A stretch of DNA of 64,000 nucleotides from Escherichia phage HK6. The DNA is taken from sequence record PP724615.1; one strand, written 5' to 3'. Shown piece by piece: positions 7,363 to 56,282 of this stretch; positions within the stretch are counted from its first letter, which is position 1; every line of letters starts with the position of its first letter. The position numbers were made by a program, and so were the translations under genes. A model generated the notes under the pieces. That model saw only the letters and a program-made list of their open reading frames with translations, made no database searches and was not told where the DNA came from.

Positions 7363-9693
7363 TTAAATAGTACAACCACCGGATGCACAACCGGCTGCTT
7401 CTTCTCCAGCACCTCCACCATTTGCGGTATTGAAGTTAGCATAATACCAAGTTTTCCACCCATACTTAACAGCAGTCATGAAATCACGAACCACTACTGG
7501 GCCAGGAATGATTTCATTCTCAAACTTGGTGTAGTCATAGTACATATTCGTACTGATAGACTGACTGAAGAATTTCTGCATAGTTGCTACCCACTTGATC
7601 CACTCGATACGATCTACATCATAAGCCAGTTTATAGCTCATTAACGTTTCCCAATCGGTTGCACCCGGAGCAATTGCAATTACTTTATTCACTGCACTAC
7701 CCTTGATAGATACAATCTTACGAGGCGGTTCAATAGAGTTAGTAACACCTAACAGAACAGAAGAACTTTCTCCCGGCATCTGAGCAGTCAGAACAGAGTT
7801 ACGCATACCATATTTCAGAATATCTGCACGCAGAGACTCCCAGTCCATTTCTAGACCTACGGATACCAGTTCATCAACAGTTTTCTTGTACGTGTCGATT
7901 ACCAGAATTCCTTTAGATGGTTTAGTACGATCAAACCACTCACATGCACCCTGTTCTTTAGCTAGTCGTACAGAGGCTTTATGCAGGAAGTAAGACAGTT
8001 TTTCAGCCTCACGGTGAATCCAGTTACGGGCTTCAATACCTTCATAAGCCAGACCTTCTGCTGCCATTGCACCTGCTGCGTTCATTAGTCCAATACCAAC
8101 ATTACGACGTTTCTTAGCCGTATATTCCATAGTTGGGAACGGATAATCCTGAATTTCAATAATTGTATCAACGAATTTCAGAAGGATGTAGCAAGTTTTT
8201 TCCCACTCAGCTAGTGATTCCATACGTCCAAGTACAACACCACCTAAGTTACACAAAGATACTTCACCAATATCCTCCGGTTTCATTTGATCAAGCTGCT
8301 CTTTTGTCTTATACAGCTCTGTGATATGATGGAACGGGCGTGTAGGCTGAGTAATTTCAACACAAAGGTTTGTCATACGGATCGGATCAAGGAAATTACC
8401 GTGACGATTAGATTCCCCGATGTGATGAGCATACATACGTCCTGTTTCCATTCGGATACGTAGCCAAGTATCTAGGATTTCTTTTGCAGAGACTTTAGGA
8501 GCTGCAGGAACTGTTTTTCCTTCGTGGTCGATCTTTGTAAGAGATGCCACACGTTTCTCCGCTGCCACGTAGATTTCTTCAAATTTAGCCTCGTCATCAC
8601 TATAAAACGCTTCATGAACTTCTGGAGCATAGAAGTATGACATTAGCGTAATATCTTCGTTTTTAAGATAACGTTTTAACAAAAGATTGTTAAAGCTCAG
8701 AGAATAATCCATCTTATCGATTTTATTCTCATCTGTAGCACGTTGTTGCTTAACCTGCATCAATTGAATGATTTCAGGGTCGAAGTATGGATAAGACACT
8801 GTAGCAGAACCACCACGAGTTTGCTGAGTATTGGCCTTTACTGAGCGGTCAATGTGTCGATAATATGGCAGTTTTCCGGAATGCGGGAATGCCCCATTTC
8901 GCACCGGATCAGCAATTGATCGGCTTTCAAGATGATACCCGATTCCCGCTCTGGCTGCGACCATTTTGAAGACGATGTGCTCGGCGGTGTCGATTGAATC
9001 CAACGTGTCAGTGGAATCCACGAGGCAGCAACTAGCAAATCCACGGTCACTAGAGCGCAGACCAACCAGTGGCGGCGTAGGAACGTTGATTTTGTGGAGT
9101 GACATTGCGTTGTAGAGATCGATTGCATCTAGAATTGTCCAGTTAGGTTGAGATAGCATCGCCATTGCCATACCCATGTAGGCAAACTGCGGAGTTTCGT
9201 AAATTTCACCAGTGGCTATGTTACGACGGGAATACTTATCAAAGAACTGCTTCAGTCCACCACTAGTAAAAAGACGGTCACGATCATGGTCGATAACCTG
9301 ATTCAGAGCTTCAAATTGCTCATCGGTAATCCATGCACTCATGTCTTCCCATGCACCTACGCTAACCATATGGTCATGGAAGAAGCGTAGAGAAGGTGGT
9401 TCGAAAGAATCATAAAGGCGTTTACGCATTTGCGCAAGACGTAATTCCTTTGCTGGCACATCATATGCTGGATTATCTTTAATAAGACTTTCAGCAGCTT
9501 TAATTAATGCATCCATCAGAGTGTCGGAATCTACAACCCCTTTAGGCAGAGTTTTTTGAGCAGCCATAGTAATGGCTGACCAACTTACATCAACTGTTTT
9601 GCAACCATACTCTGCCCAACCATTGATTTTTTCAGGAGCAAAGTCTTCTACAGTACCGTCACGTTTAATTACTTTTTCAATGCGATGGCTCAT
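7363..9693 (-). CDS. nrdA: ribonucleotide reductase class I large (alpha) subunit
   Basis: ATP-cone (VIKRDGTVEDFAPEKI), catalytic-site region NLCVEI and C-terminal Cys pair. Track ORF extends to 9798; preferred start ATG 9693 (MSHRIEK) has AAGGAAA RBS. Confidence 0.85.
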   Translation of the reverse strand: MSHRIEKVIKRDGTVEDFAPEKINGWAEYGCKTVDVSWSAITMAAQKTLPKGVVDSDTLMDALIKAAESLIKDNPAYDVPAKELRLAQMRKRLYDSFEPPSLRFFHDHMVSVGAWEDMSAWITDEQFEALNQVIDHDRDRLFTSGGLKQFFDKYSRRNIATGEIYETPQFAYMGMAMAMLSQPNWTILDAIDLYNAMSLHKINVPTPPLVGLRSSDRGFASCCLVDSTDTLDSIDTAEHIVFKMVAARAGIGYHLESRSIADPVRNGAFPHSGKLPYYRHIDRSVKANTQQTRGGSATVSYPYFDPEIIQLMQVKQQRATDENKIDKMDYSLSFNNLLLKRYLKNEDITLMSYFYAPEVHEAFYSDDEAKFEEIYVAAEKRVASLTKIDHEGKTVPAAPKVSAKEILDTWLRIRMETGRMYAHHIGESNRHGNFLDPIRMTNLCVEITQPTRPFHHITELYKTKEQLDQMKPEDIGEVSLCNLGGVVLGRMESLAEWEKTCYILLKFVDTIIEIQDYPFPTMEYTAKKRRNVGIGLMNAAGAMAAEGLAYEGIEARNWIHREAEKLSYFLHKASVRLAKEQGACEWFDRTKPSKGILVIDTYKKTVDELVSVGLEMDWESLRADILKYGMRNSVLTAQMPGESSSVLLGVTNSIEPPRKIVSIKGSAVNKVIAIAPGATDWETLMSYKLAYDVDRIEWIKWVATMQKFFSQSISTNMYYDYTKFENEIIPGPVVVRDFMTAVKYGWKTWYYANFNTANGGGAGEEAAGCASGGCTI

Positions 9694-10820: not shown

Positions 10821-11105
10821 TCCTATAGTGTACTTCGCTAACAGAGGATCAACAAAAAGATCTTGTTTATCAACTTACAAATATATTATACCAATATATA
10901 CAGTAAAAAGCAACTACAATTTTAAATAAGCCTATGATATTGCATTTAAATAAAAAATTTGCTTGCTTTTAACGTGAGATGTGTGATACTAGATAATCAT
11001 TTTATATCGCGTGCACGAGTGCGTGATTATACAATTTTTAATAGAGATTGGCAAATAAAATTTTTTGACTCAGATCATGTTACAGAACTTTATAGTAAAA
11101 TATTG

Positions 11106-11134
11106 TTGACATCCGCCCTCGAATGAGTTATAAT
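11106..11134 (+). promoter_or_regulatory. sigma70-type promoter for nrdD
   Basis: TTGACA (11106-11111), 17-bp spacer, TATAAT (11129-11134); RBS GAAGGAGAG before ATG 11164. Confidence 0.6.
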
Positions 11135-13044: not shown

Positions 13045-13080
13045 CAGCCGGGTTGCTAGTCGACCTGGCTTTTATTTTAT
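13045..13080 (+). terminator. rho-independent terminator after nrdD
   Basis: GCCGGG...CCTGGC stem (one G-U pair) followed by TTTTATTTTAT. Confidence 0.5.
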
Positions 13081-13109
13081 TTGCTTTCATCCAAAAATTT
13101 ATATATAAT
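13081..13109 (+). promoter_or_regulatory. sigma70-type early promoter
   Basis: TTGCTT, 17 bp, TATAAT, then conserved AGATTTATAAATTTGAGAGGAGA box that includes the RBS. Confidence 0.6.
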
Positions 13110-13137: not shown

Positions 13138-13518
13138 ATGGAATTAAAGCCCTATATAGTTGAATCTACATGTGGTAGTTTCCATCTGGGTGTGGATGAT
13201 ATTGCTGAGGCTGTCTTTGCTGCTACAGGTGATTACTCGCATATAGAGGGTGTTGCATACCCTACCATTATTGGCGATTGGGTGGAAACAAATCTAGATG
13301 TATCGCCTTATAACCCATATTGCTTGTTTGATGAAGACAGAGATGAAGTAAAATGTAATCTTGAATTTGTGTATAATAGAGTGTTAAAAGTATACCAACG
13401 TAGCCCCAATGGGTACGAAGATATTACTTGGAGTATTAAACAGTATCTTAAAGATATATACTCTAGTTTTTCTGACGAAGACCTAGAAATAGTTGCAGTG
13501 GAGTTTAATAATGACTAA
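13138..13518 (+). CDS. acidic hypothetical protein
   Basis: 126-aa ORF with Asp/Glu-rich composition; first gene after the promoter. Confidence 0.45.
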   Translation: MELKPYIVESTCGSFHLGVDDIAEAVFAATGDYSHIEGVAYPTIIGDWVETNLDVSPYNPYCLFDEDRDEVKCNLEFVYNRVLKVYQRSPNGYEDITWSIKQYLKDIYSSFSDEDLEIVAVEFNND

Positions 13519-13717
13519 GAATGTGAAACACCTTAAATATCGCTTAATTTACAACGGACGTATGGAAACAGAAGATCTGGCCCAGTTAGCTATTAATTCT
13601 AAGGAGGTTACAGTGCGTGCGCTGGCAATTGAAAAGTTGCGTGCCTCTTATGAAAATCGTGTTATGGAATTAGAGGAGAAACTTTATGGCATTCTCGAAG
13701 CCGATGCTACCAGATAA
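13493..13717 (+). CDS. hypothetical protein
   Basis: 74-aa ORF overlapping neighbours; start likely internal (MTKNVKHL). Confidence 0.35.
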   Translation: MQWSLIMTKNVKHLKYRLIYNGRMETEDLAQLAINSKEVTVRALAIEKLRASYENRVMELEEKLYGILEADATR

Positions 13718-13907
13718 GGGTTTAAACGCCGCTTTGGAAAACGCATTAATGCAGCACTGGGAAACTGGCTATAAGGATGGTGTTGAATCCTGCGCTACTA
13801 TGCTAGAAGTTATTGCTAATACCTTAATGGAGAAAGGCAATAAAGAATTAGCTGAGCTATTAGATAGTATTGGGCAAAACTTCAGAGAACAGGTGAAAAA
13901 TGCGTAG
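13686..13907 (+). CDS. hypothetical protein
   Basis: 73-aa ORF; stop overlaps the Sir2-like start. Confidence 0.35.
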   Translation: MAFSKPMLPDKGLNAALENALMQHWETGYKDGVESCATMLEVIANTLMEKGNKELAELLDSIGQNFREQVKNA

Positions 13908-14736
13908 ATTAATTATTATTAGTGGTGCAGGTTTGAGTGTTGAAAGTGGTGTACGAGCTTTTCGTACTAATACTGCTAGCGGTAAAGCATTGTGGGATGA
14001 TTATGATCTAGAAGAAGTATGTAATATTCATGCCTTTCGTGGTAATTTTTATCATAAAACCCATATGTTTTACAACAAGCGTCGTGAAGAGCTAAAAACT
14101 GTTGAACCCAATCTTGCGCATTTGCGTATTGGTGAATGGTATAAACAATATCCAGGTCAAGTAGTAAACTTGACTACCAACGTTGATGACCTTATTGAGC
14201 GTGCTGGCGTTTCACATAGTGACATTCTGCACATTCACGGATATTTAAAAGAGGTTGTTGTAGCTGATAGCTACAATAGTAGCAATAAACGGATTATTGA
14301 TGTAGGATACAGTTCTATCGATCCGGATGATTATAAATGGGTTAAACCTAATGTAATCTTCTTTGGAGAGCATGCTCCAGCATATGCAGAAATGTACAAT
14401 GTTTTTGATGGTATTACCAGTCAAGATATGATTGTTGTGGTTGGTTGTTCTAACCAAGTAATTAACTTCTACTGGGAATTATTTCCTGTTCTTAATTTGA
14501 CTGCTGCGAAACTTATGGTTGTTAACTACCATGATAGTGCCCTCGCAGCGGAACCGGGCTATCAAGGTATGACTCGTAGTGAGATGTACCAGCTGGAGGA
14601 ACGCGGTATCCCTTACTGGAGTAAAGGTGCGGTAGATGCTTTCAGTGACCCTGATTTTATTGCTCGTGTAGAAGCTCATTTAGAGGGTAGACCTTATGTG
14701 TTGAGAAGCAAGGGAAACAGATATGTCCATAGTTAA
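13900..14736 (+). CDS. Sir2 (sirtuin) family NAD-dependent protein lacking the zinc ribbon
   Basis: GAGLSVESGVRAFR (cf. GAGISxESGIPxFR), TTNVDDLIERAG (cf. TQNIDxLH..AG), HIHG catalytic His, VIFFGE, VVVGCS, VVN; no Cys pairs between HG and FGE. Confidence 0.7.
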   Translation: MRRLIIISGAGLSVESGVRAFRTNTASGKALWDDYDLEEVCNIHAFRGNFYHKTHMFYNKRREELKTVEPNLAHLRIGEWYKQYPGQVVNLTTNVDDLIERAGVSHSDILHIHGYLKEVVVADSYNSSNKRIIDVGYSSIDPDDYKWVKPNVIFFGEHAPAYAEMYNVFDGITSQDMIVVVGCSNQVINFYWELFPVLNLTAAKLMVVNYHDSALAAEPGYQGMTRSEMYQLEERGIPYWSKGAVDAFSDPDFIARVEAHLEGRPYVLRSKGNRYVHS

Positions 14737-14905
14737 ATCTGTATATACACATCCCGATGACATATTTGTATGGGCAGATGGTAGTTGGTGCTATCGATGT
14801 GAGTTATGGGAAATGGACTATAAATCCGATGACTATGGCGTCATATATGTTGATACGGTTGAGTATGATACGTTCTTAGAAAGGAACAAAAATGGAAATA
14901 AGTAA
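14723..14905 (+). CDS. hypothetical protein
   Basis: 60-aa ORF inside an overlapping gene chain. Confidence 0.3.
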   Translation: MSIVKSVYTHPDDIFVWADGSWCYRCELWEMDYKSDDYGVIYVDTVEYDTFLERNKNGNK

Positions 14906-15398
14906 TACTCCAATTATTTTTCTAGATATTGATGGGGTGCTCAATTCGAGCATCTCCCACCATCATGCACCTGATAATGAAAAGATTTTCTTTGGAAGTG
15001 ACTGGGTTTTCAAACCGCTTCTCAAGGCTTTTCAGGATTTTATTCGTCCTTCTCCGATAATGATTGTTGGAGTATCCTCATGGTTCTCTGTCAGGAATGA
15101 GATGGAAAACGTTCAGATTATGACCGGATTAGGTCTTATCGATCGTTTTCTTGGTACAACGGATTTTACTGGGGGTGGATTATCTAGGGGTAATTCTGTT
15201 CTTCGCTTCGTTGAAAAGCATAAGCTCAAACATTGGTGTGTGCTTGATGATGCTGGTGCTATGATGTATCAGTATCCAACGGTTATAGTCAACGGTAGGA
15301 CTGGGATAAATCTTCAAGATTTAAAAGCTGTTAGCTATATGCTAGAATTTAGCCCAGATCTTGAAATGTGTAAATCCTTACAACAATTTAAGGTGTAA
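14892..15398 (+). CDS. HAD-superfamily phosphatase-like protein
   Basis: N-terminal FLDIDGVLN (HAD motif I, DxDG) and later CVLDDAG acidic motif. Confidence 0.55.
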   Translation: MEISNTPIIFLDIDGVLNSSISHHHAPDNEKIFFGSDWVFKPLLKAFQDFIRPSPIMIVGVSSWFSVRNEMENVQIMTGLGLIDRFLGTTDFTGGGLSRGNSVLRFVEKHKLKHWCVLDDAGAMMYQYPTVIVNGRTGINLQDLKAVSYMLEFSPDLEMCKSLQQFKV

Positions 15399-15400
15399 AT

Positions 15401-15829
15401 ATGTTCAATAATGTATTCTCTAAAGAAGCTAACCCAATTTTGGTTAACTTTTGGCGTACTCTCCCAGCTAGCCTGTATAATGAGGCTATTAACTCCTTGA
15501 AAATATGGTGTGAGAATAATGAAATCTCCTTTGCTTTTAAAGATGATATTGATGAGGCCCCCTGTATTGGTTTAATTGTTCAGGTAGAGGAGGGTCTTGA
15601 GGAGATTGTCGGCTGGAAAGAGTTAGATGAAATAGGCTTAGTTTTTGCGTTAAACTATAAGCTGTTTATGCCTGCTAAGCATCGCCTCGTTGTTAACTAT
15701 AAAACTAGTGAATCTCCTGGTTTTCAAGTTAATGAACGTTACGGTTGGTCTTACTTACCGGAAGAAGTAAATGATGGTATCCAAAAACTTCGCCGTTTTG
15801 GTTATCAAATTCCGGGTTTAACTGCTTAA
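15401..15829 (+). CDS. hypothetical protein, paralog A of a tandem pair
   Basis: 142 aa; shares PCIG, W.EL...GL.(V/F)ALN, (I/V)PGL blocks with the next ORF. Confidence 0.5.
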   Translation: MFNNVFSKEANPILVNFWRTLPASLYNEAINSLKIWCENNEISFAFKDDIDEAPCIGLIVQVEEGLEEIVGWKELDEIGLVFALNYKLFMPAKHRLVVNYKTSESPGFQVNERYGWSYLPEEVNDGIQKLRRFGYQIPGLTA

Positions 15830-15838
15830 GGAGGAAGA

Positions 15839-16231
15839 ATGGAACAAGTATATTGGCGTCAGATTGACCCTAGTTTGGTGAAGCGTGCGGAAAAGCTGCT
15901 ACAACGTTGGTTAGGGGTAAGGCAAGCCTCCTTCACTTTTCCGGAGCAGCAAACGGATGATCCCTGCATTGGCGTTTTCCTGTCTGGATATGCCGGGGAA
16001 TGGGAGATGGACTGGAATGAATTGTCAGCTATGGGTTTAATTGTTGCCCTAAACTTCTCTATATTCCATCCACGTGGTTTGGCCATATGTCGCGTGCCTG
16101 ATGACGGTTGTTCGCCCCATCTTTTACAGGTGGAAAATGATATTTGGGAGTACACTCCAGATATTCTCGCAGAAGCTAAAGAACAATTAAATCGTGTTGG
16201 GATTTATGTTCCGGGATTAAATGATGAATAA
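15839..16231 (+). CDS. hypothetical protein, paralog B of a tandem pair
   Basis: 130 aa; colinear similarity (roughly 25-30% identity by eye) to 15401-15829. Confidence 0.5.
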   Translation: MEQVYWRQIDPSLVKRAEKLLQRWLGVRQASFTFPEQQTDDPCIGVFLSGYAGEWEMDWNELSAMGLIVALNFSIFHPRGLAICRVPDDGCSPHLLQVENDIWEYTPDILAEAKEQLNRVGIYVPGLNDE

Positions 16232-16418
16232 GGAATTTTGGAAAATAAAAGGGAAGATTTCTAAGTGGAATACTACAGGGAAAATTAGTAAGTCTCTAGA
16301 GATAGAGATAGCTAGAATGTTTACTGATCCTAATTTTGATATAGAAAAACTAAGCAAAGTAGATGCTAAAAAAGTAGATAAGTATATAGAAGAGATTAGA
16401 AGTATTTTAAGTGTCTAA
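16221..16418 (+). CDS. hypothetical protein
   Basis: 65-aa Lys/Glu-rich ORF, last before the terminator. Confidence 0.35.
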   Translation: MMNKEFWKIKGKISKWNTTGKISKSLEIEIARMFTDPNFDIEKLSKVDAKKVDKYIEEIRSILSV

Positions 16419-16424
16419 TCCACG

Positions 16425-16452
16425 TAACCGAGTCATTTTGGCTCGGTTTTAT
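16425..16452 (+). terminator. rho-independent terminator
   Basis: AACCGAGTC-ATTTTG-GCTCGGTT hairpin followed by TTTAT. Confidence 0.6.
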
Positions 16453-16494
16453 CCGTACTCAAGACCAATGATAGCACCATCCGGAAAATTTTAC

Positions 16495-16523
16495 TTGCAG
16501 GATGCCCAAAATCTTGATATAAT
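16495..16523 (+). promoter_or_regulatory. sigma70-type early promoter
   Basis: TTGCAG, 17 bp, TATAAT followed by ATTTATATTGAATTGAGAGA box. Confidence 0.55.
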
Positions 16524-17021
16524 ATTTATATTGAATTGAGAGACATTAGTAAAAATTGATTTTGCTAATTTTTCTTGTTTACAATCCGCGATACGGAACA
16601 GTTAGGCTGCCCCATTAAGGGTTGTTTTAACTGTTACGTGTTAGTTTTTAAACAAATAGTTAATAGAATACTTAGCGATCTACATCCCGTAGGAACCCTG
16701 GTAAGGCCTCGAAGCAACCTAGTGTGAGGTGGTTGTGAAGTGAGACGGGAAGAGTGAAAAACTCTGAGAAGTGATGACGTAAGGTATACTGCATCTAGTA
16801 TGAGCTAGTACATGAAGCATTAGGTGAGCAAATCTGGCTTAGCGGCCATCCTCAAGGATTTGTGCGGTATAGTGAAGCGGCAGTGTAGCGTGAAAGGGGA
16901 AGTTGCCACCCCCCTTCAGTATTTGCGATTAATTGTTGAGAAATTGACAGTAACAGTTGTTCTATTCTTTCTGAATAGTCCTAAAGAAAACTTATTTCAT
17001 TTCCAACACAGGAGTATTGTT

Positions 17022-22610: not shown

Positions 22611-23582
22611 ATGACTAATGTAAAAGACTTTATTAAACGTTGCCAAGAAGCGTATTACCAGGGAATGTCTTTAATCTCTGACGAAGAATATGATCGTCTG
22701 ATTAAAAGATTTCCGTTAGAAGAAGAGATCGGGCCTAAGGGCGATATTCCACATCTGTATCGTATGTATTCTTTACAGAAAGTTTATTATAATCGTGGAG
22801 ATAAACCTCCATTTAACCCATTAGGTCAGGTAGAAACTGATAAGTTAGATGGTTGTGCGATTTCTCTGTTATATATTAATGGAGAATTTGTTCAAGCACT
22901 AACTCGTGGTAATGGTATTCTAGGGAATGATGTCACAAGCAACGTAAGATTGCTGAACATCCCTAAAAAGATTTCCCAAAAAGTACCTACTCAAATCACT
23001 GGTGAAGTTCTAATTACAAAAGAAGTAGAAAATAAACGTAACTTTGCCTCTGGTGCTATTAACCTCAAAGATAGTGATGATTTCGTACAACGTATCGGAG
23101 AAGGTGGTTTAATCTTCGTTGCATACGGTATCCAGTGTTCTGCTGAATCTGTAGGTATTACAGAAGCATATTTAAAAGATATGCTTTGGCTAGAGAATGA
23201 GGACTTCTTAACAGTTGTTAATGTGCGTTCCTTCTTTAAATGGATTCCGACGGACGGTAAAGTTGTTCGTATTAATGATAACAACAAATTCTTTCGTGAA
23301 GGCTGGACTAATAAATTTCCTCGTGGCGCATTCGCTATTAAAGAAGATGAAGAAGGCGAAATTACAACTCTTACTAAAGTTGAATGGCAGGTAGGGGCTT
23401 CTGGTAAAGTAACTCCAGTTGGTTATTTCGAACCGGTAATTATTGATGATGCTACAATTGTTAAGGCGACTCTTAATAACGTTGATTATATTAACTCTCT
23501 TGATCTAGAGATCGGTTGCCAGATTCGAGTAATTCGTGCTGGTGGTGTGATCCCGTGCATAGTAGAGCGAGTATACGATTAA
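22611..23582 (+). CDS. ligA: NAD-dependent DNA ligase, N-terminal (adenylation/OB) part
   Basis: KLDG motif (catalytic Lys, KxDG); ends before the zinc finger/HhH/BRCT portion. Confidence 0.7.
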   Translation: MTNVKDFIKRCQEAYYQGMSLISDEEYDRLIKRFPLEEEIGPKGDIPHLYRMYSLQKVYYNRGDKPPFNPLGQVETDKLDGCAISLLYINGEFVQALTRGNGILGNDVTSNVRLLNIPKKISQKVPTQITGEVLITKEVENKRNFASGAINLKDSDDFVQRIGEGGLIFVAYGIQCSAESVGITEAYLKDMLWLENEDFLTVVNVRSFFKWIPTDGKVVRINDNNKFFREGWTNKFPRGAFAIKEDEEGEITTLTKVEWQVGASGKVTPVGYFEPVIIDDATIVKATLNNVDYINSLDLEIGCQIRVIRAGGVIPCIVERVYD

Positions 23583-23781: not shown

Positions 23782-24564
23782 TTGATGAAAATCGAAATTC
23801 CAACACAATGTCCCTCTTGTGGTTCTAAGCTAGATCTTGTCAACGGACAATTATTCTGTAGGAATAAGTCCAACTGTCCAGCGCAATCAAGTAAGTTAAT
23901 TGAGAACTTCTGTTCAAAAATGAAGTTAAAGGGCTTTGGCCCAAAAACTATTGAGAAGCTGGAGCTGACGAAGATTTCAGAACTATTTTACCTAACCGAA
24001 GAAGATTTGGTTAGAGCCGTGGGTAGCAAGGTTGCCGCTAAGTTAATTAGCGAATTAAATACTAAAGTTCGCGGAGGCATTGACTTTGGTTCAGTTCTCG
24101 GTTCTTTAGGAATCCCTCTAATTGGAGAGGTTGCAGCAAAGAAATTATCCCAAAATTGCACTAGCTTCCACGATGTGAAGGCTGACGGCAAGGCTGGAGA
24201 AAACTATAAAGCCTGGCTAAATTCCCCACAAGGCAAGGATGTTATCGAACTACCGTGGAAATTCTCAACTGGTATTAAGGGCACTAAAGCCGACATCATC
24301 ATTACAGATGAGTTAGTTGCCCAGCCAAATGGAATCGCGGTATGTATTACCGGATCTTTGCAAGATTTTGCAAATCGAACGGATGCAACAAACTATTTAG
24401 AGAGTCTAGGATATACGGTTAAGAAATCCGTTACCAAAGACGTCAAATACCTAATCTGTGAGGATGAATCAAAACGTTCTTCCTCATCTTATAAGAAAGC
24501 CGAAACGAATGGGATAGAAATCCTGTCGATTAAAGAACTATTGGAGAAAAATAATAATGTCTAA
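23782..24564 (+). CDS. NAD-dependent DNA ligase, C-terminal (Zn-finger/HhH/BRCT) part
   Basis: Four-Cys zinc finger CPSCGS...CRNKSNCP, HhH-like GIPLIGEVAAKKL, BRCT-like CITGSL. Confidence 0.65.
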   Translation: MMKIEIPTQCPSCGSKLDLVNGQLFCRNKSNCPAQSSKLIENFCSKMKLKGFGPKTIEKLELTKISELFYLTEEDLVRAVGSKVAAKLISELNTKVRGGIDFGSVLGSLGIPLIGEVAAKKLSQNCTSFHDVKADGKAGENYKAWLNSPQGKDVIELPWKFSTGIKGTKADIIITDELVAQPNGIAVCITGSLQDFANRTDATNYLESLGYTVKKSVTKDVKYLICEDESKRSSSSYKKAETNGIEILSIKELLEKNNNV

Positions 24565-55514: not shown

Positions 55515-56282
55515 TTAGGTTCCTTGATTAACCTTAATTTTATATCTGGAGTGAATCAGGTCTCTTGCAGCTTTTGCTATAGCCTCACCAATAAGTTTTT
55601 GTGGGTTTCTAGCGCCAGGATAAGGTCGTAGAGATAATCTTCTGTATGTAGATACTGCCGGATTGAACACAGAATATGGACGAGTCATATAATTATATGT
55701 TACGTTCAATTCAGGAGAGCCTTTACTAGCTTCAGAATCACGAAGCATAACATCTTTAATTTTTAAAGAGTTTGCAAAGCGACCCGTTCTAAACTTTAAG
55801 GGTGCTCCCGCTTTTTTCATATCCTTTATTAAGTATTCTTTAGCAACTATCTCTAATATAATCTTCATATTGCTGTTAGACACAAAACGTCCAGAAGCAC
55901 CTGTTACTGCACCAGAGTATCCATCCTCAACATCACTAGGATCACCAAAGTTTACCTGCACTCTACCAGTAGAACGTTTTTTACCTACTGAGGATTTTTT
56001 ACCAGCAGTTGCTTGTATTAGATTCTCCAGAGCACCTAAATCTCCAGAAAGATCTAAACTAGAGGATACAGCTTTTAGTATAGAGGCTGTTCTAACATCA
56101 AGAAGATCTTGGGATACAGGTTTTGAAAACTTAAAAGATACTTGAGCAACAGTACCATCTCTGGTAGGATCTTTTAACCCTGTTTCAACAGAGTATACAA
56201 CAGTATTCTTATTATTTTCAGATCGGCCTGCAGTATCTAGCTGCTCTTTAATAATTTGTTTAGCTAGATCGGAAAGAGACAT
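55515..56282 (-). CDS. tail terminator / neck protein (putative)
   Basis: 255-aa ORF, position in head-tail joining block. Confidence 0.35.
   Translation of the reverse strand: MSLSDLAKQIIKEQLDTAGRSENNKNTVVYSVETGLKDPTRDGTVAQVSFKFSKPVSQDLLDVRTASILKAVSSSLDLSGDLGALENLIQATAGKKSSVGKKRSTGRVQVNFGDPSDVEDGYSGAVTGASGRFVSNSNMKIILEIVAKEYLIKDMKKAGAPLKFRTGRFANSLKIKDVMLRDSEASKGSPELNVTYNYMTRPYSVFNPAVSTYRRLSLRPYPGARNPQKLIGEAIAKAARDLIHSRYKIKVNQGT

Follow-up and report, generated by a model that had tools for sequence, protein, structure and literature searches.

A CobB-like sirtuin without zinc ligands in Escherichia phage HK6 and its possible role in removing phosphates from RNA

Two published studies describe the systems closest to the gene analyzed here. 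Iyer, Burroughs, Anantharaman and Aravind (2022; PMC9503650) presented the sirtuins of rV5-, Mydo- and PVP-SE1-like phages as exemplars of a 'viral RNA-repair sirtuin' clade, used the T5-like phage SP15 to exemplify a type that combines a sirtuin with a Swiss-army-knife HAD protein, and predicted that phage sirtuins carry out a KptA-like removal of RNA 2'-phosphates. Skliros et al. (2016; PMC5107563) noted for the Sir2/CobB proteins of phages KVP40 and phiSt2 that the zinc ligand site is lost with the catalytic His kept, named the T5 homolog, and proposed an Acs-type deacetylation for the KVP40 and phiSt2 proteins. We analyzed the sirtuin gene of Escherichia phage HK6, which lies in a stretch of 64,000 nucleotides of sequence record PP724615.1 (the window; see Table 1 for feature coordinates). 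Judged from its sequence, the HK6 protein is in all likelihood the ortholog of T5.102, a catalytically intact sirtuin without zinc ligands that belongs to a phage-specific branch of the CobB/Sir2Af1/SIRT5-like sirtuins and is expressed from an early operon together with a HAD_SAK_2 phosphatase. It is an ordinary gene for a T5-like genome; earlier work had already covered the gene, its neighborhood and the loss of zinc ligands in homologs from phages.

The start codon is preceded at 7 nt by a Shine-Dalgarno sequence (AGGTG). The product matches Pfam SIR2 (PF02146) with E = 9e-25 and 88.1 bits (cut-off 24) over profile positions 1-178 of 180, and belongs to the phage sirtuin family phrog_2162 (PHROG 2162; E = 1.2e-119). 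Many Tequintavirus genomes (T5-like Demerecviridae) match the 3.5 kb around the gene at 93-96% identity, and their records label the gene SIR2-family deacetylase. Using tblastn, homologs were found in 997 phage records, including T5-like, rV5/Mydo/PVP-SE1-like, Phapecoctavirus, Vibrio schizoT4 and jumbo phages. The searchable literature yielded no experiments on T5.102 or phage sirtuins.

Conservation was assessed in an alignment with 120 homologs at 49-96% identity (121 sequences with the HK6 sirtuin). Invariant in the homologs are G9-A10-G11, S13, F21-R22, W32, C41, F57-Y58, R61-R62, P70-N71, H74, T93-N94-V95-D96, H113-G114, K149-P150, F154-F155, E157, G182, S184, V187, F190 and N209. An earlier reading of the window by a model that saw only the letters and their open reading frames (ORFs), the sequence-only reading, had reported that all core sirtuin motifs are present. 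The alignment agrees: the GAGxS, FR, QNxD, HG, FGE, GxS and N motifs are all found and invariant, with two departures from the canonical forms, TTNVD for TQNxD (Q to T) and GCS for GTS. Strong constraint therefore acts on the NAD pocket and the catalytic His, which excludes a decayed gene. With both of them intact in a sirtuin fold, it is also very probable that the HK6 sirtuin consumes NAD+, which supports the earlier picture of an NAD-using sirtuin-fold enzyme in an accessory early cluster. Pocket residues were mapped through engineered CobB variants among the PDB alignment rows: CobB A76, Y92, R95, I131 and V187 correspond to C41, Y58, R61, V95 and V152, so the class III Y-x-x-R pocket is conserved in the HK6 sirtuin.

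The sequence-only reading had further stated that the Cys4 zinc-ribbon insertion is absent. The ligand cysteines are indeed gone, but the insertion itself is present. The HK6 sirtuin has only two cysteines (C41 and C183), with none in residues 115-148, and no conserved Cys pair was found in this segment in the 120 homologs; the zinc ligands are truly lost. The segment has 34 residues, compared to about 35 in the aligned E. coli CobB. In the AlphaFold model (predicted local distance difference test, pLDDT, 90.4; predicted TM-score, pTM, 0.88), the zinc-module blocks have pLDDT of 93-97 and strands are predicted at residues 114-122, 130-134 and 147-152. The zinc domain of CobB has been described with a three-stranded sheet (PMC8556138). 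The model predicts that the zinc module was not deleted and is kept as a sheet without ligands, the sheet being that of the CobB zinc module.

When 1.84 billion representative proteins were searched with a profile, 7606 sirtuins were found. Among the best 150 of them (the counts are phylogenetically non-independent and uncorrected), 35 of the 44 proteins with T at the Q position of TQNxD have 0-1 Cys in the zinc module and 75 of the 89 with Q have four or more, so that T at this position tracks zinc-ligand loss (35/44 vs 10/89); in the same 150, the change from GTS to GCS, GSS or GAS follows the same split. Together, cysteine loss, Q to T and the GTS change may be a signature of co-adaptation in the phage clade. 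The zinc-free TTNVD-type members examined are on phage-like contigs; three zinc-containing relatives were looked up, and two of them are on cellular-looking contigs (one by LplA, one by DAGK), the third contig being too short to tell.

Searches against the PDB ranked E. coli CobB first (1.8e-17 with the single sequence and 1.9e-30 with the profile), then Sir2Af1/Af2, SIRT5 and Sir2Tm. Foldseek with the predicted structure, which shows the two-domain sirtuin fold, agrees with this ranking (CobB, E 1e-16, TM 0.83). Further figures from the placement are 14.6-14.7 for the ADP-ribosylating SirTM and 14.0 for SIRT6, and, for the defense NADases, 13.6 for PsSIR2, 12.2 for ThsA and HerA-Sir2, and 9.8 and 9.4 for Avs5/AVAST5. 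By sequence, profile and fold, the closest relatives are thus CobB, Sir2Af1 and SIRT5; these were the checks that the sequence-only reading had proposed, and they gave a confident sirtuin fold with the catalytic His/Asn retained. The protein scores far under the NCBIfam CobB cut-offs (101 vs 243 bits for NF001753 and 91 vs 320 bits for NF040867), so we regard it as CobB-like and not as a CobB ortholog.

From the missing zinc ribbon, the sequence-only reading had argued for SIR2 domains of the NADase or ADP-ribosyltransferase (ART) type. That argument fails, since the SirTM proteins (class M) keep their zinc-coordinating domain, with QG in place of HG and a linked macrodomain (PMC4518038), and the HK6 sirtuin retains HG, has no linked macrodomain among the cluster ORFs scanned, is CobB-like in kinship and has an invariant Y-x-x-R. 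No matches to Macro, GcvH or LplA were found among the nine cluster ORFs scanned. A SirTM assignment was rejected, as H113-G114 is invariant and the nine ORFs of the cluster are without a macrodomain match. The PADLOC models gave no match to the HK6 sirtuin, which by model and partner genes also falls outside the defense-associated SIR2 NADases (ThsA, DSR1/2, SIR2-HerA and SIR2-STAND).

A NADase or protein ADP-ribosyltransferase could deplete or redirect NAD+, or modify host targets, for takeover or for blunting NAD-dependent immunity. We consider it improbable for the HK6 sirtuin. An intact NAD pocket implies NAD+ consumption, weak ADP-ribosyltransferase activity is possible in sirtuins (PMC9503650), and, within an operon that is otherwise conserved, the sirtuin and the small ORFs beside it form the block that diverges most, a possible sign of conflict. 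However, the window encodes an NAD-dependent DNA ligase split in two (ligA, 22611-23579, and ligB, 23785-24561; 99% and 96% identity to T5), so phage replication relies on the very cofactor consumed by the sirtuin. This speaks against a wasteful NADase. Relatives also carry NAD-restoring pathways (NARP3 in TrudiRoth).

The divergence of the block is seen when Tequintavirus is compared with Epseptimavirus (window 13686-14905 against loci L004, Seabear, and L072, TrudiRoth): identity is 59-62% for the sirtuin and 36% and 53% for the two overlapping small ORFs, compared to 98% for NrdD, 90% for the HAD protein, 87% for the T5.101-like protein and 72-73% for DUF7415. The unrelated myovirus Mydo has a sirtuin that is equally close to the T5 type (64-67%). 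This pattern suggests allele exchange or fast evolution of the block.

For the function of the HK6 sirtuin we favor, tentatively and by analogy, a Tpt1/KptA-like NAD+-dependent RNA phosphate transferase, as predicted by Iyer et al. (2022). NAD+ would be bound in the conserved pocket (GAG, F21/R22, N94/D96, S184 and N209). The Y58/R61 pocket would hold an anionic group, one oxygen of which would attack C1' of the nicotinamide ribose, expelling nicotinamide; His113 would next activate the ribose 2'-OH, and the adduct would be resolved. The substrate would be a 2'-PO4 or terminal phosphate on broken or ligated RNA, left by host metal-independent nucleases that cut tRNA. The products would be clean RNA and ADP-ribose cyclic phosphate, and the adjacent HAD phosphatase would clear linear end phosphates. 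Tpt1 is NAD+-dependent; a phosphate oxygen attacks NAD+ C1'', and ribose O2'' then resolves the adduct (PMC11417386). Set beside the Tpt1 steps (PMC11417386, PMC6097658), the sirtuin mechanism is formally parallel. Genes for RNA ligase, 2H, Macro and NADAR proteins are associated with Tpt1/KptA (PMC9503650). Supporting this function are the RNA-end-processing neighbors that recur in at least six separate lineages, the joint loss of Sir2 and HAD in phage DT57C (see below), the active-site residues invariant in the homologs together with the confident sirtuin fold, and the phage-type contexts of the zinc-free TTNVD subclade as opposed to the cellular-looking contigs of two zinc-containing relatives.

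The neighborhoods were surveyed in 59 IMG/VR loci plus reference records. T5-like phages have the order SIR2-HAD_SAK_2-DUF7415, and HAD_SAK_2 is found in about 30 loci. The DUF7415 neighbor of SP15 is 92% identical to the one in HK6, and HK6 has the neighborhood by which the clade of Iyer et al. is recognized, with a Swiss-army-knife HAD nearby and no adjacent Macro gene. In the rV5-, Mydo- and PVP-SE1-like phages, the sirtuin lies among a calcineurin-type phosphoesterase (Metallophos), an AAA_33 (PNK-like) kinase, an Rnl1 RNA ligase and a cREC 'cyclic-phosphate processing' domain, and in a 608-kb megaphage Rnl1 lies 1.2 kb upstream of the sirtuin. Three contigs carry more distant zinc-free relatives: a marine T4-like contig has RlaP-SIR2-NADAR; on a TARA contig SIR2 precedes a nucleotidyltransferase-CoaE kinase fusion and HAD_SAK_2 lies 2.3 kb downstream, an arrangement independent of T5 synteny; and on another contig SIR2 overlaps PTH2, with AlkB-like and RNase_T-like genes nearby. 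The surveyed contexts reproduce and extend the neighborhoods of Iyer et al. (2022), and point to RNA-end or ADP-ribose processing, not to a counter to NAD-dependent immunity.

We note some further arrangements. Three sirtuin-less phages (loci L069-L071), namely VCM, PA45_GUMS (Pseudomonas) and JSF12 (Vibrio), have a phosphoesterase-Rnl1-AAA_33 kinase super-module beside Prs-like and NAMPT-like genes (the NARP1 pair), with a DNA ligase in VCM and PA45_GUMS and a Macro-domain protein in PA45_GUMS and JSF12; as these super-modules adjoin the NARP1 pair, RNA-repair and NAD-rebuilding genes are habitually co-located. On the contigs with the zinc-free relative P0138 (L080:1151-4172 and L081), the downstream called genes have in-frame stops under code 11, which hints at a stop-codon-recoded phage. 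Distant relatives P0136, P0201 and P0269 show a tandem double-SIR2, SIR2 with WG beta-repeats and SIR2 with a LEM-3-like GIY-YIG nuclease domain, with no clear functional clue.

Some of these neighbors could also be read as parts of the phage NAD economy. The sirtuin and the HAD phosphatase would then act together on small molecules of NAD or ADP-ribose metabolism, phosphorylated ADP-ribose or nicotinamide-nucleotide derivatives, and not on macromolecules. In some lineages the neighbors are NADAR, a Nuc_deoxyri_tr2 protein, the nucleotidyltransferase-CoaE-kinase fusion or NARP1-like Prs/NAMPT genes, and CobB was first linked to nicotinamide mononucleotide (NMN)-type chemistry, as recounted in PMC9503650. 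However, the exact reaction is without precedent, the elements of a peptide or macromolecule cleft are conserved, and T5-like phages have no NARP1 beside the sirtuin gene (NARP3 is 20 kb away in TrudiRoth), and we rate such an enzyme as still less likely than the NADase or ADP-ribosyltransferase.

A CobB-like NAD+-dependent lysine deacylase (of the deacetylase, desuccinylase or lipoamidase type) is nearly as likely as the RNA phosphate transferase. Early in infection, proteins of the host or the phage, such as enzymes of nucleotide metabolism, ligases at their active-site lysines or the translation apparatus, would be stripped of acyl groups and thereby reactivated for the phage. The hydrophobic acyl-lysine tunnel (V152, F154, V187 and H113) and the CobB-like pocket (C41, Y58, R61 and V95) are retained, as expected of a lysine deacylase and contrary to the RNA reading. 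On the other side, the scores are far under the CobB equivalog cut-offs given above, the clade has specific changes in its NAD and substrate loops (Q93T, GTS to GCS, VYP to VIN), and the recurrent RNA-repair and ADP-ribose-processing neighbors would be unexplained unless those proteins are the targets. We saw no gene for a partner acetyltransferase in the regions that were examined, although no systematic search was made.

Other observations also weigh against an RNA phosphate transferase, the case for which is one of guilt by association only. RNA-repair neighbors were not found at the homolog loci of Phapecoctavirus and a Vibrio phage. A search for Rnl1-type ligases returned only 14 Salmonella-phage records, none of them T5-like among the 40 matches listed, and the T5 annotation between 1 and 75 kb contains neither an RNA ligase nor an RNA kinase; T5-like phages thus appear to lack both enzymes, which would leave the RNA pathway incomplete without host enzymes. 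In the sirtuin-less Rnl1 modules (Otagovirus, Pakpunavirus and Vibrio JSF12), no KptA was found in the sirtuin's place, only NARP1-like Prs/NAMPT, Macro, kinase and DUF7390. As DNA ligase and NAD-salvage genes (Prs/NAMPT-like NARP1 pairs) occur in the same super-clusters, the linkage may follow an NAD theme and not an RNA theme. Charge does not discriminate for RNA binding: the zinc-free clade is acidic (median isoelectric point, pI, 5.2), but so, to the same degree, are the RNA and DNA ligases that these phages encode (pI 5.5-6.0).

An RNA phosphate transferase in HK6 would fit a wider proposal, which we put forward with somewhat more reserve: the zinc-free TTNVD phage sirtuins may be the first sirtuins that act on nucleic acid and not as protein deacylases, with NAD+ used to take 2'- or terminal phosphates off tRNA or RNA broken by nucleases, a convergent replacement of Tpt1/KptA with HAD_SAK_2, cREC and Rnl1 as partners, in which zinc loss, Q to T and GTS to GCS would mark the substrate switch.

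In HK6, the sirtuin gene is part of a cluster of nine overlapping or abutting ORFs up to 16418 that forms one promoter-to-terminator unit, and the T5 RefSeq record has the same promoter and terminators around T5.100-T5.107. The sequence-only reading had the gene co-transcribed with small acidic proteins, a HAD-like phosphatase and a duplicated gene, which is borne out by the unit, the HAD_SAK_2 match (7e-20) and the two DUF7415 paralogs. The small ORFs are mostly acidic (pI 4.1-4.8), and the HAD_SAK_2 gene starts 156 nt downstream of the sirtuin end. The confidently predicted fold of DUF7415 found no match in the PDB, and scans of the window for tRNAs and Rfam families found nothing.

Table 1. 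Features of the sirtuin gene and its surroundings in the HK6 window (aa, amino acids)
Feature	Position	Strand	Remarks
Sirtuin gene, T5.102 ortholog, 278 aa	13900..14736	+	ATG at 13900, stop at 14736
GAG NAD-phosphate-binding motif, residues 9-11	13924..13932	+	invariant in homologs
Cys41	14020..14022	+	in 120/121 sequences; aligns with acyl-pocket residue CobB A76 (wild-type and A76G variant rows)
Y58-N-K-R61, class III Y-x-x-R anion-binding pocket motif	14071..14082	+	Y58 and R61 invariant; Y58 = CobB Y92 (Y92A variant row)
TTNVD nicotinamide pocket	14173..14187	+	T93, N94, V95, D96 invariant
Catalytic His113-Gly114	14236..14241	+	invariant; aligns with CobB HG
Cysteine-free equivalent of zinc-binding module, residues 115-148	14242..14343	+	0 Cys; three predicted strands
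KPNVIFFGE, substrate-tunnel / FGE loop	14344..14370	+	K149, P150, F154, F155, E157 invariant
GCS (canonical GTS) NAD-binding motif	14443..14451	+	G182 and S184 invariant; C in 109/121
Hairpin terminator after nrdD, upstream cluster boundary	13046..13070	+	10-bp stem and T-run; -15.4 kcal/mol, z=-3.2; T5 RefSeq terminator in same place
Promoter-like site TTGCTT-17-TATAAT	13081..13109	+	found by reading, under the scan's -35 threshold; T5 RefSeq promoter at equivalent 55708-55782
Acidic 126-aa ORF (T5.100 ortholog), unknown function	13138..13518	+	phrog_11748; 93% identity to T5.100; pI 4.1
Small ORF (T5.101 ortholog)	13493..13717	+	phrog_5236; T5.101 match 13511-13708; likely start near 13511
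Acidic 73-aa ORF overlapping sirtuin start	13686..13907	+	phrog_5827; variable; no T5 counterpart; 36% identity in Epseptimavirus
Acidic 60-aa ORF (T5.104 ortholog) overlapping sirtuin end and HAD start	14723..14905	+	phrog_5116; 98% identity to T5.104
HAD_SAK_2 phosphatase (T5.105 ortholog), intact DIDGV motif	14892..15398	+	PF18143 7e-20; 98% identity to T5.105
DUF7415 protein a (T5.106 ortholog)	15401..15829	+	
DUF7415 protein b (T5.107 ortholog)	15839..16231	+	PF24187 7e-32; paralog of a (31% identity, E 3e-19)
Basic 65-aa ORF, last gene of unit	16221..16418	+	phrog_29527; pI 9.5
Hairpin terminator closing unit	16426..16448	+	10-bp stem, -13.5 kcal/mol, z=-4.05, then UUUUAU; T5 terminator after T5.107
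TTGACA-17-TATAAT (12/12)	11106-11134	+	
TTGCCA-17-TATAAT (11/12)	11054-11026	-	

RefSeq and pharokka-style annotations give the HAD_SAK_2 gene (at 7885-8391 in locus L001 and 7589-8095 in locus L067) the name 'Sir2 (NAD-dependent deacetylase)', and two 'Sir2' genes therefore appear in many records. The source of the mislabel is phrog_18062, a 92-position profile matched by the C-terminal half of the HAD protein at 6e-58 and by the true sirtuin weakly (1.8e-5). Phage DT57C (L068:2980-3252) has two deletions, equivalent to window 13710-14392 and 14536-15258, and retains a 90-aa in-frame fusion of Sir2 residues ~169-212 with HAD residues 128-168, annotated 'sir2 (defective)'. Sirtuin and HAD have thus been lost together in a viable phage, and the DT57C fusion probably seeded the phrog_18062 mislabel.

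Other features around the cluster include a non-coding gap of about 400 nt (16419-16823) between the cluster terminator and a large replication (origin-binding/helicase-primase) gene. A section of this gap (16427-16664) shares 89% identity with Epseptimavirus, above the adjacent coding genes (67-77%), and contains a promoter-like site (16556-16585) and no Rfam match; the gap could represent a long leader, a regulatory element or an origin element. Back-to-back sigma-70 consensus sites between phoH and nrdD (11026-11134; last two rows of Table 1) match divergent promoters annotated in T5.

About 1000 of the virulent phages sequenced encode sirtuins (T5-, rV5-, phAPEC8- and KVP40-like and jumbo phages). 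If RNA healing is true, sirtuin chemistry would extend to nucleic-acid phosphates and the phages would have an added counter-measure to tRNA-cleaving bacterial immunity; if the deacylase is true, a virus would be rewriting the host acyl-proteome. The HK6 window itself offers nothing beyond a well-annotated gene and a published prediction (2022), and the practical output of our analysis is the correction of a widespread HAD 'Sir2' mis-annotation and a clearer account of what the zinc module has lost and what it has kept.

Tpt1/KptA, the proposed functional analog, has an unrelated fold (ART superfamily) with no sequence or structural similarity, and an activity of the phage sirtuin on RNA is only predicted. 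With SirTM and the defense SIR2 NADases (ThsA, DSR, SIR2-HerA and Avs5) the HK6 protein shares the NAD+-using sirtuin/SIR2 Rossmann core. E. coli CobB (PDB 1S5P/6RXJ), Sir2Af1 and SIRT5 are about 24-27% identical to it; unlike CobB and other class III proteins, the HK6 sirtuin is phage-encoded, has no zinc-ligand Cys, and has Q changed to T, GTS to GCS and VYP to VIN. The KVP40 and phiSt2 sirtuins are about 36-40% identical and have different neighbors. Closer are the sirtuins of the rV5-, Mydo- and PVP-SE1-like phages (e.g. rv5_gp080; 57-64% identity), which are also zinc-free, have TTNVD and are early accessory genes; their neighbors are Rnl1, AAA_33 kinase, Metallophos, cREC, MazG and DNA ligase, whereas those in HK6 are HAD_SAK_2 and DUF7415. 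The closest is T5.102 (YP_006930, 'putative Sir2-like protein' in the T5 reference record), with 93.7% identity over 271 aa, the same place between nrdD and the HAD and DUF7415 genes, and the same promoter and terminator layout; compared to T5, the HK6 window has the added 73-aa ORF (13686-13907), is without T5.103, and encodes a sirtuin with a slightly different C-terminal tail.

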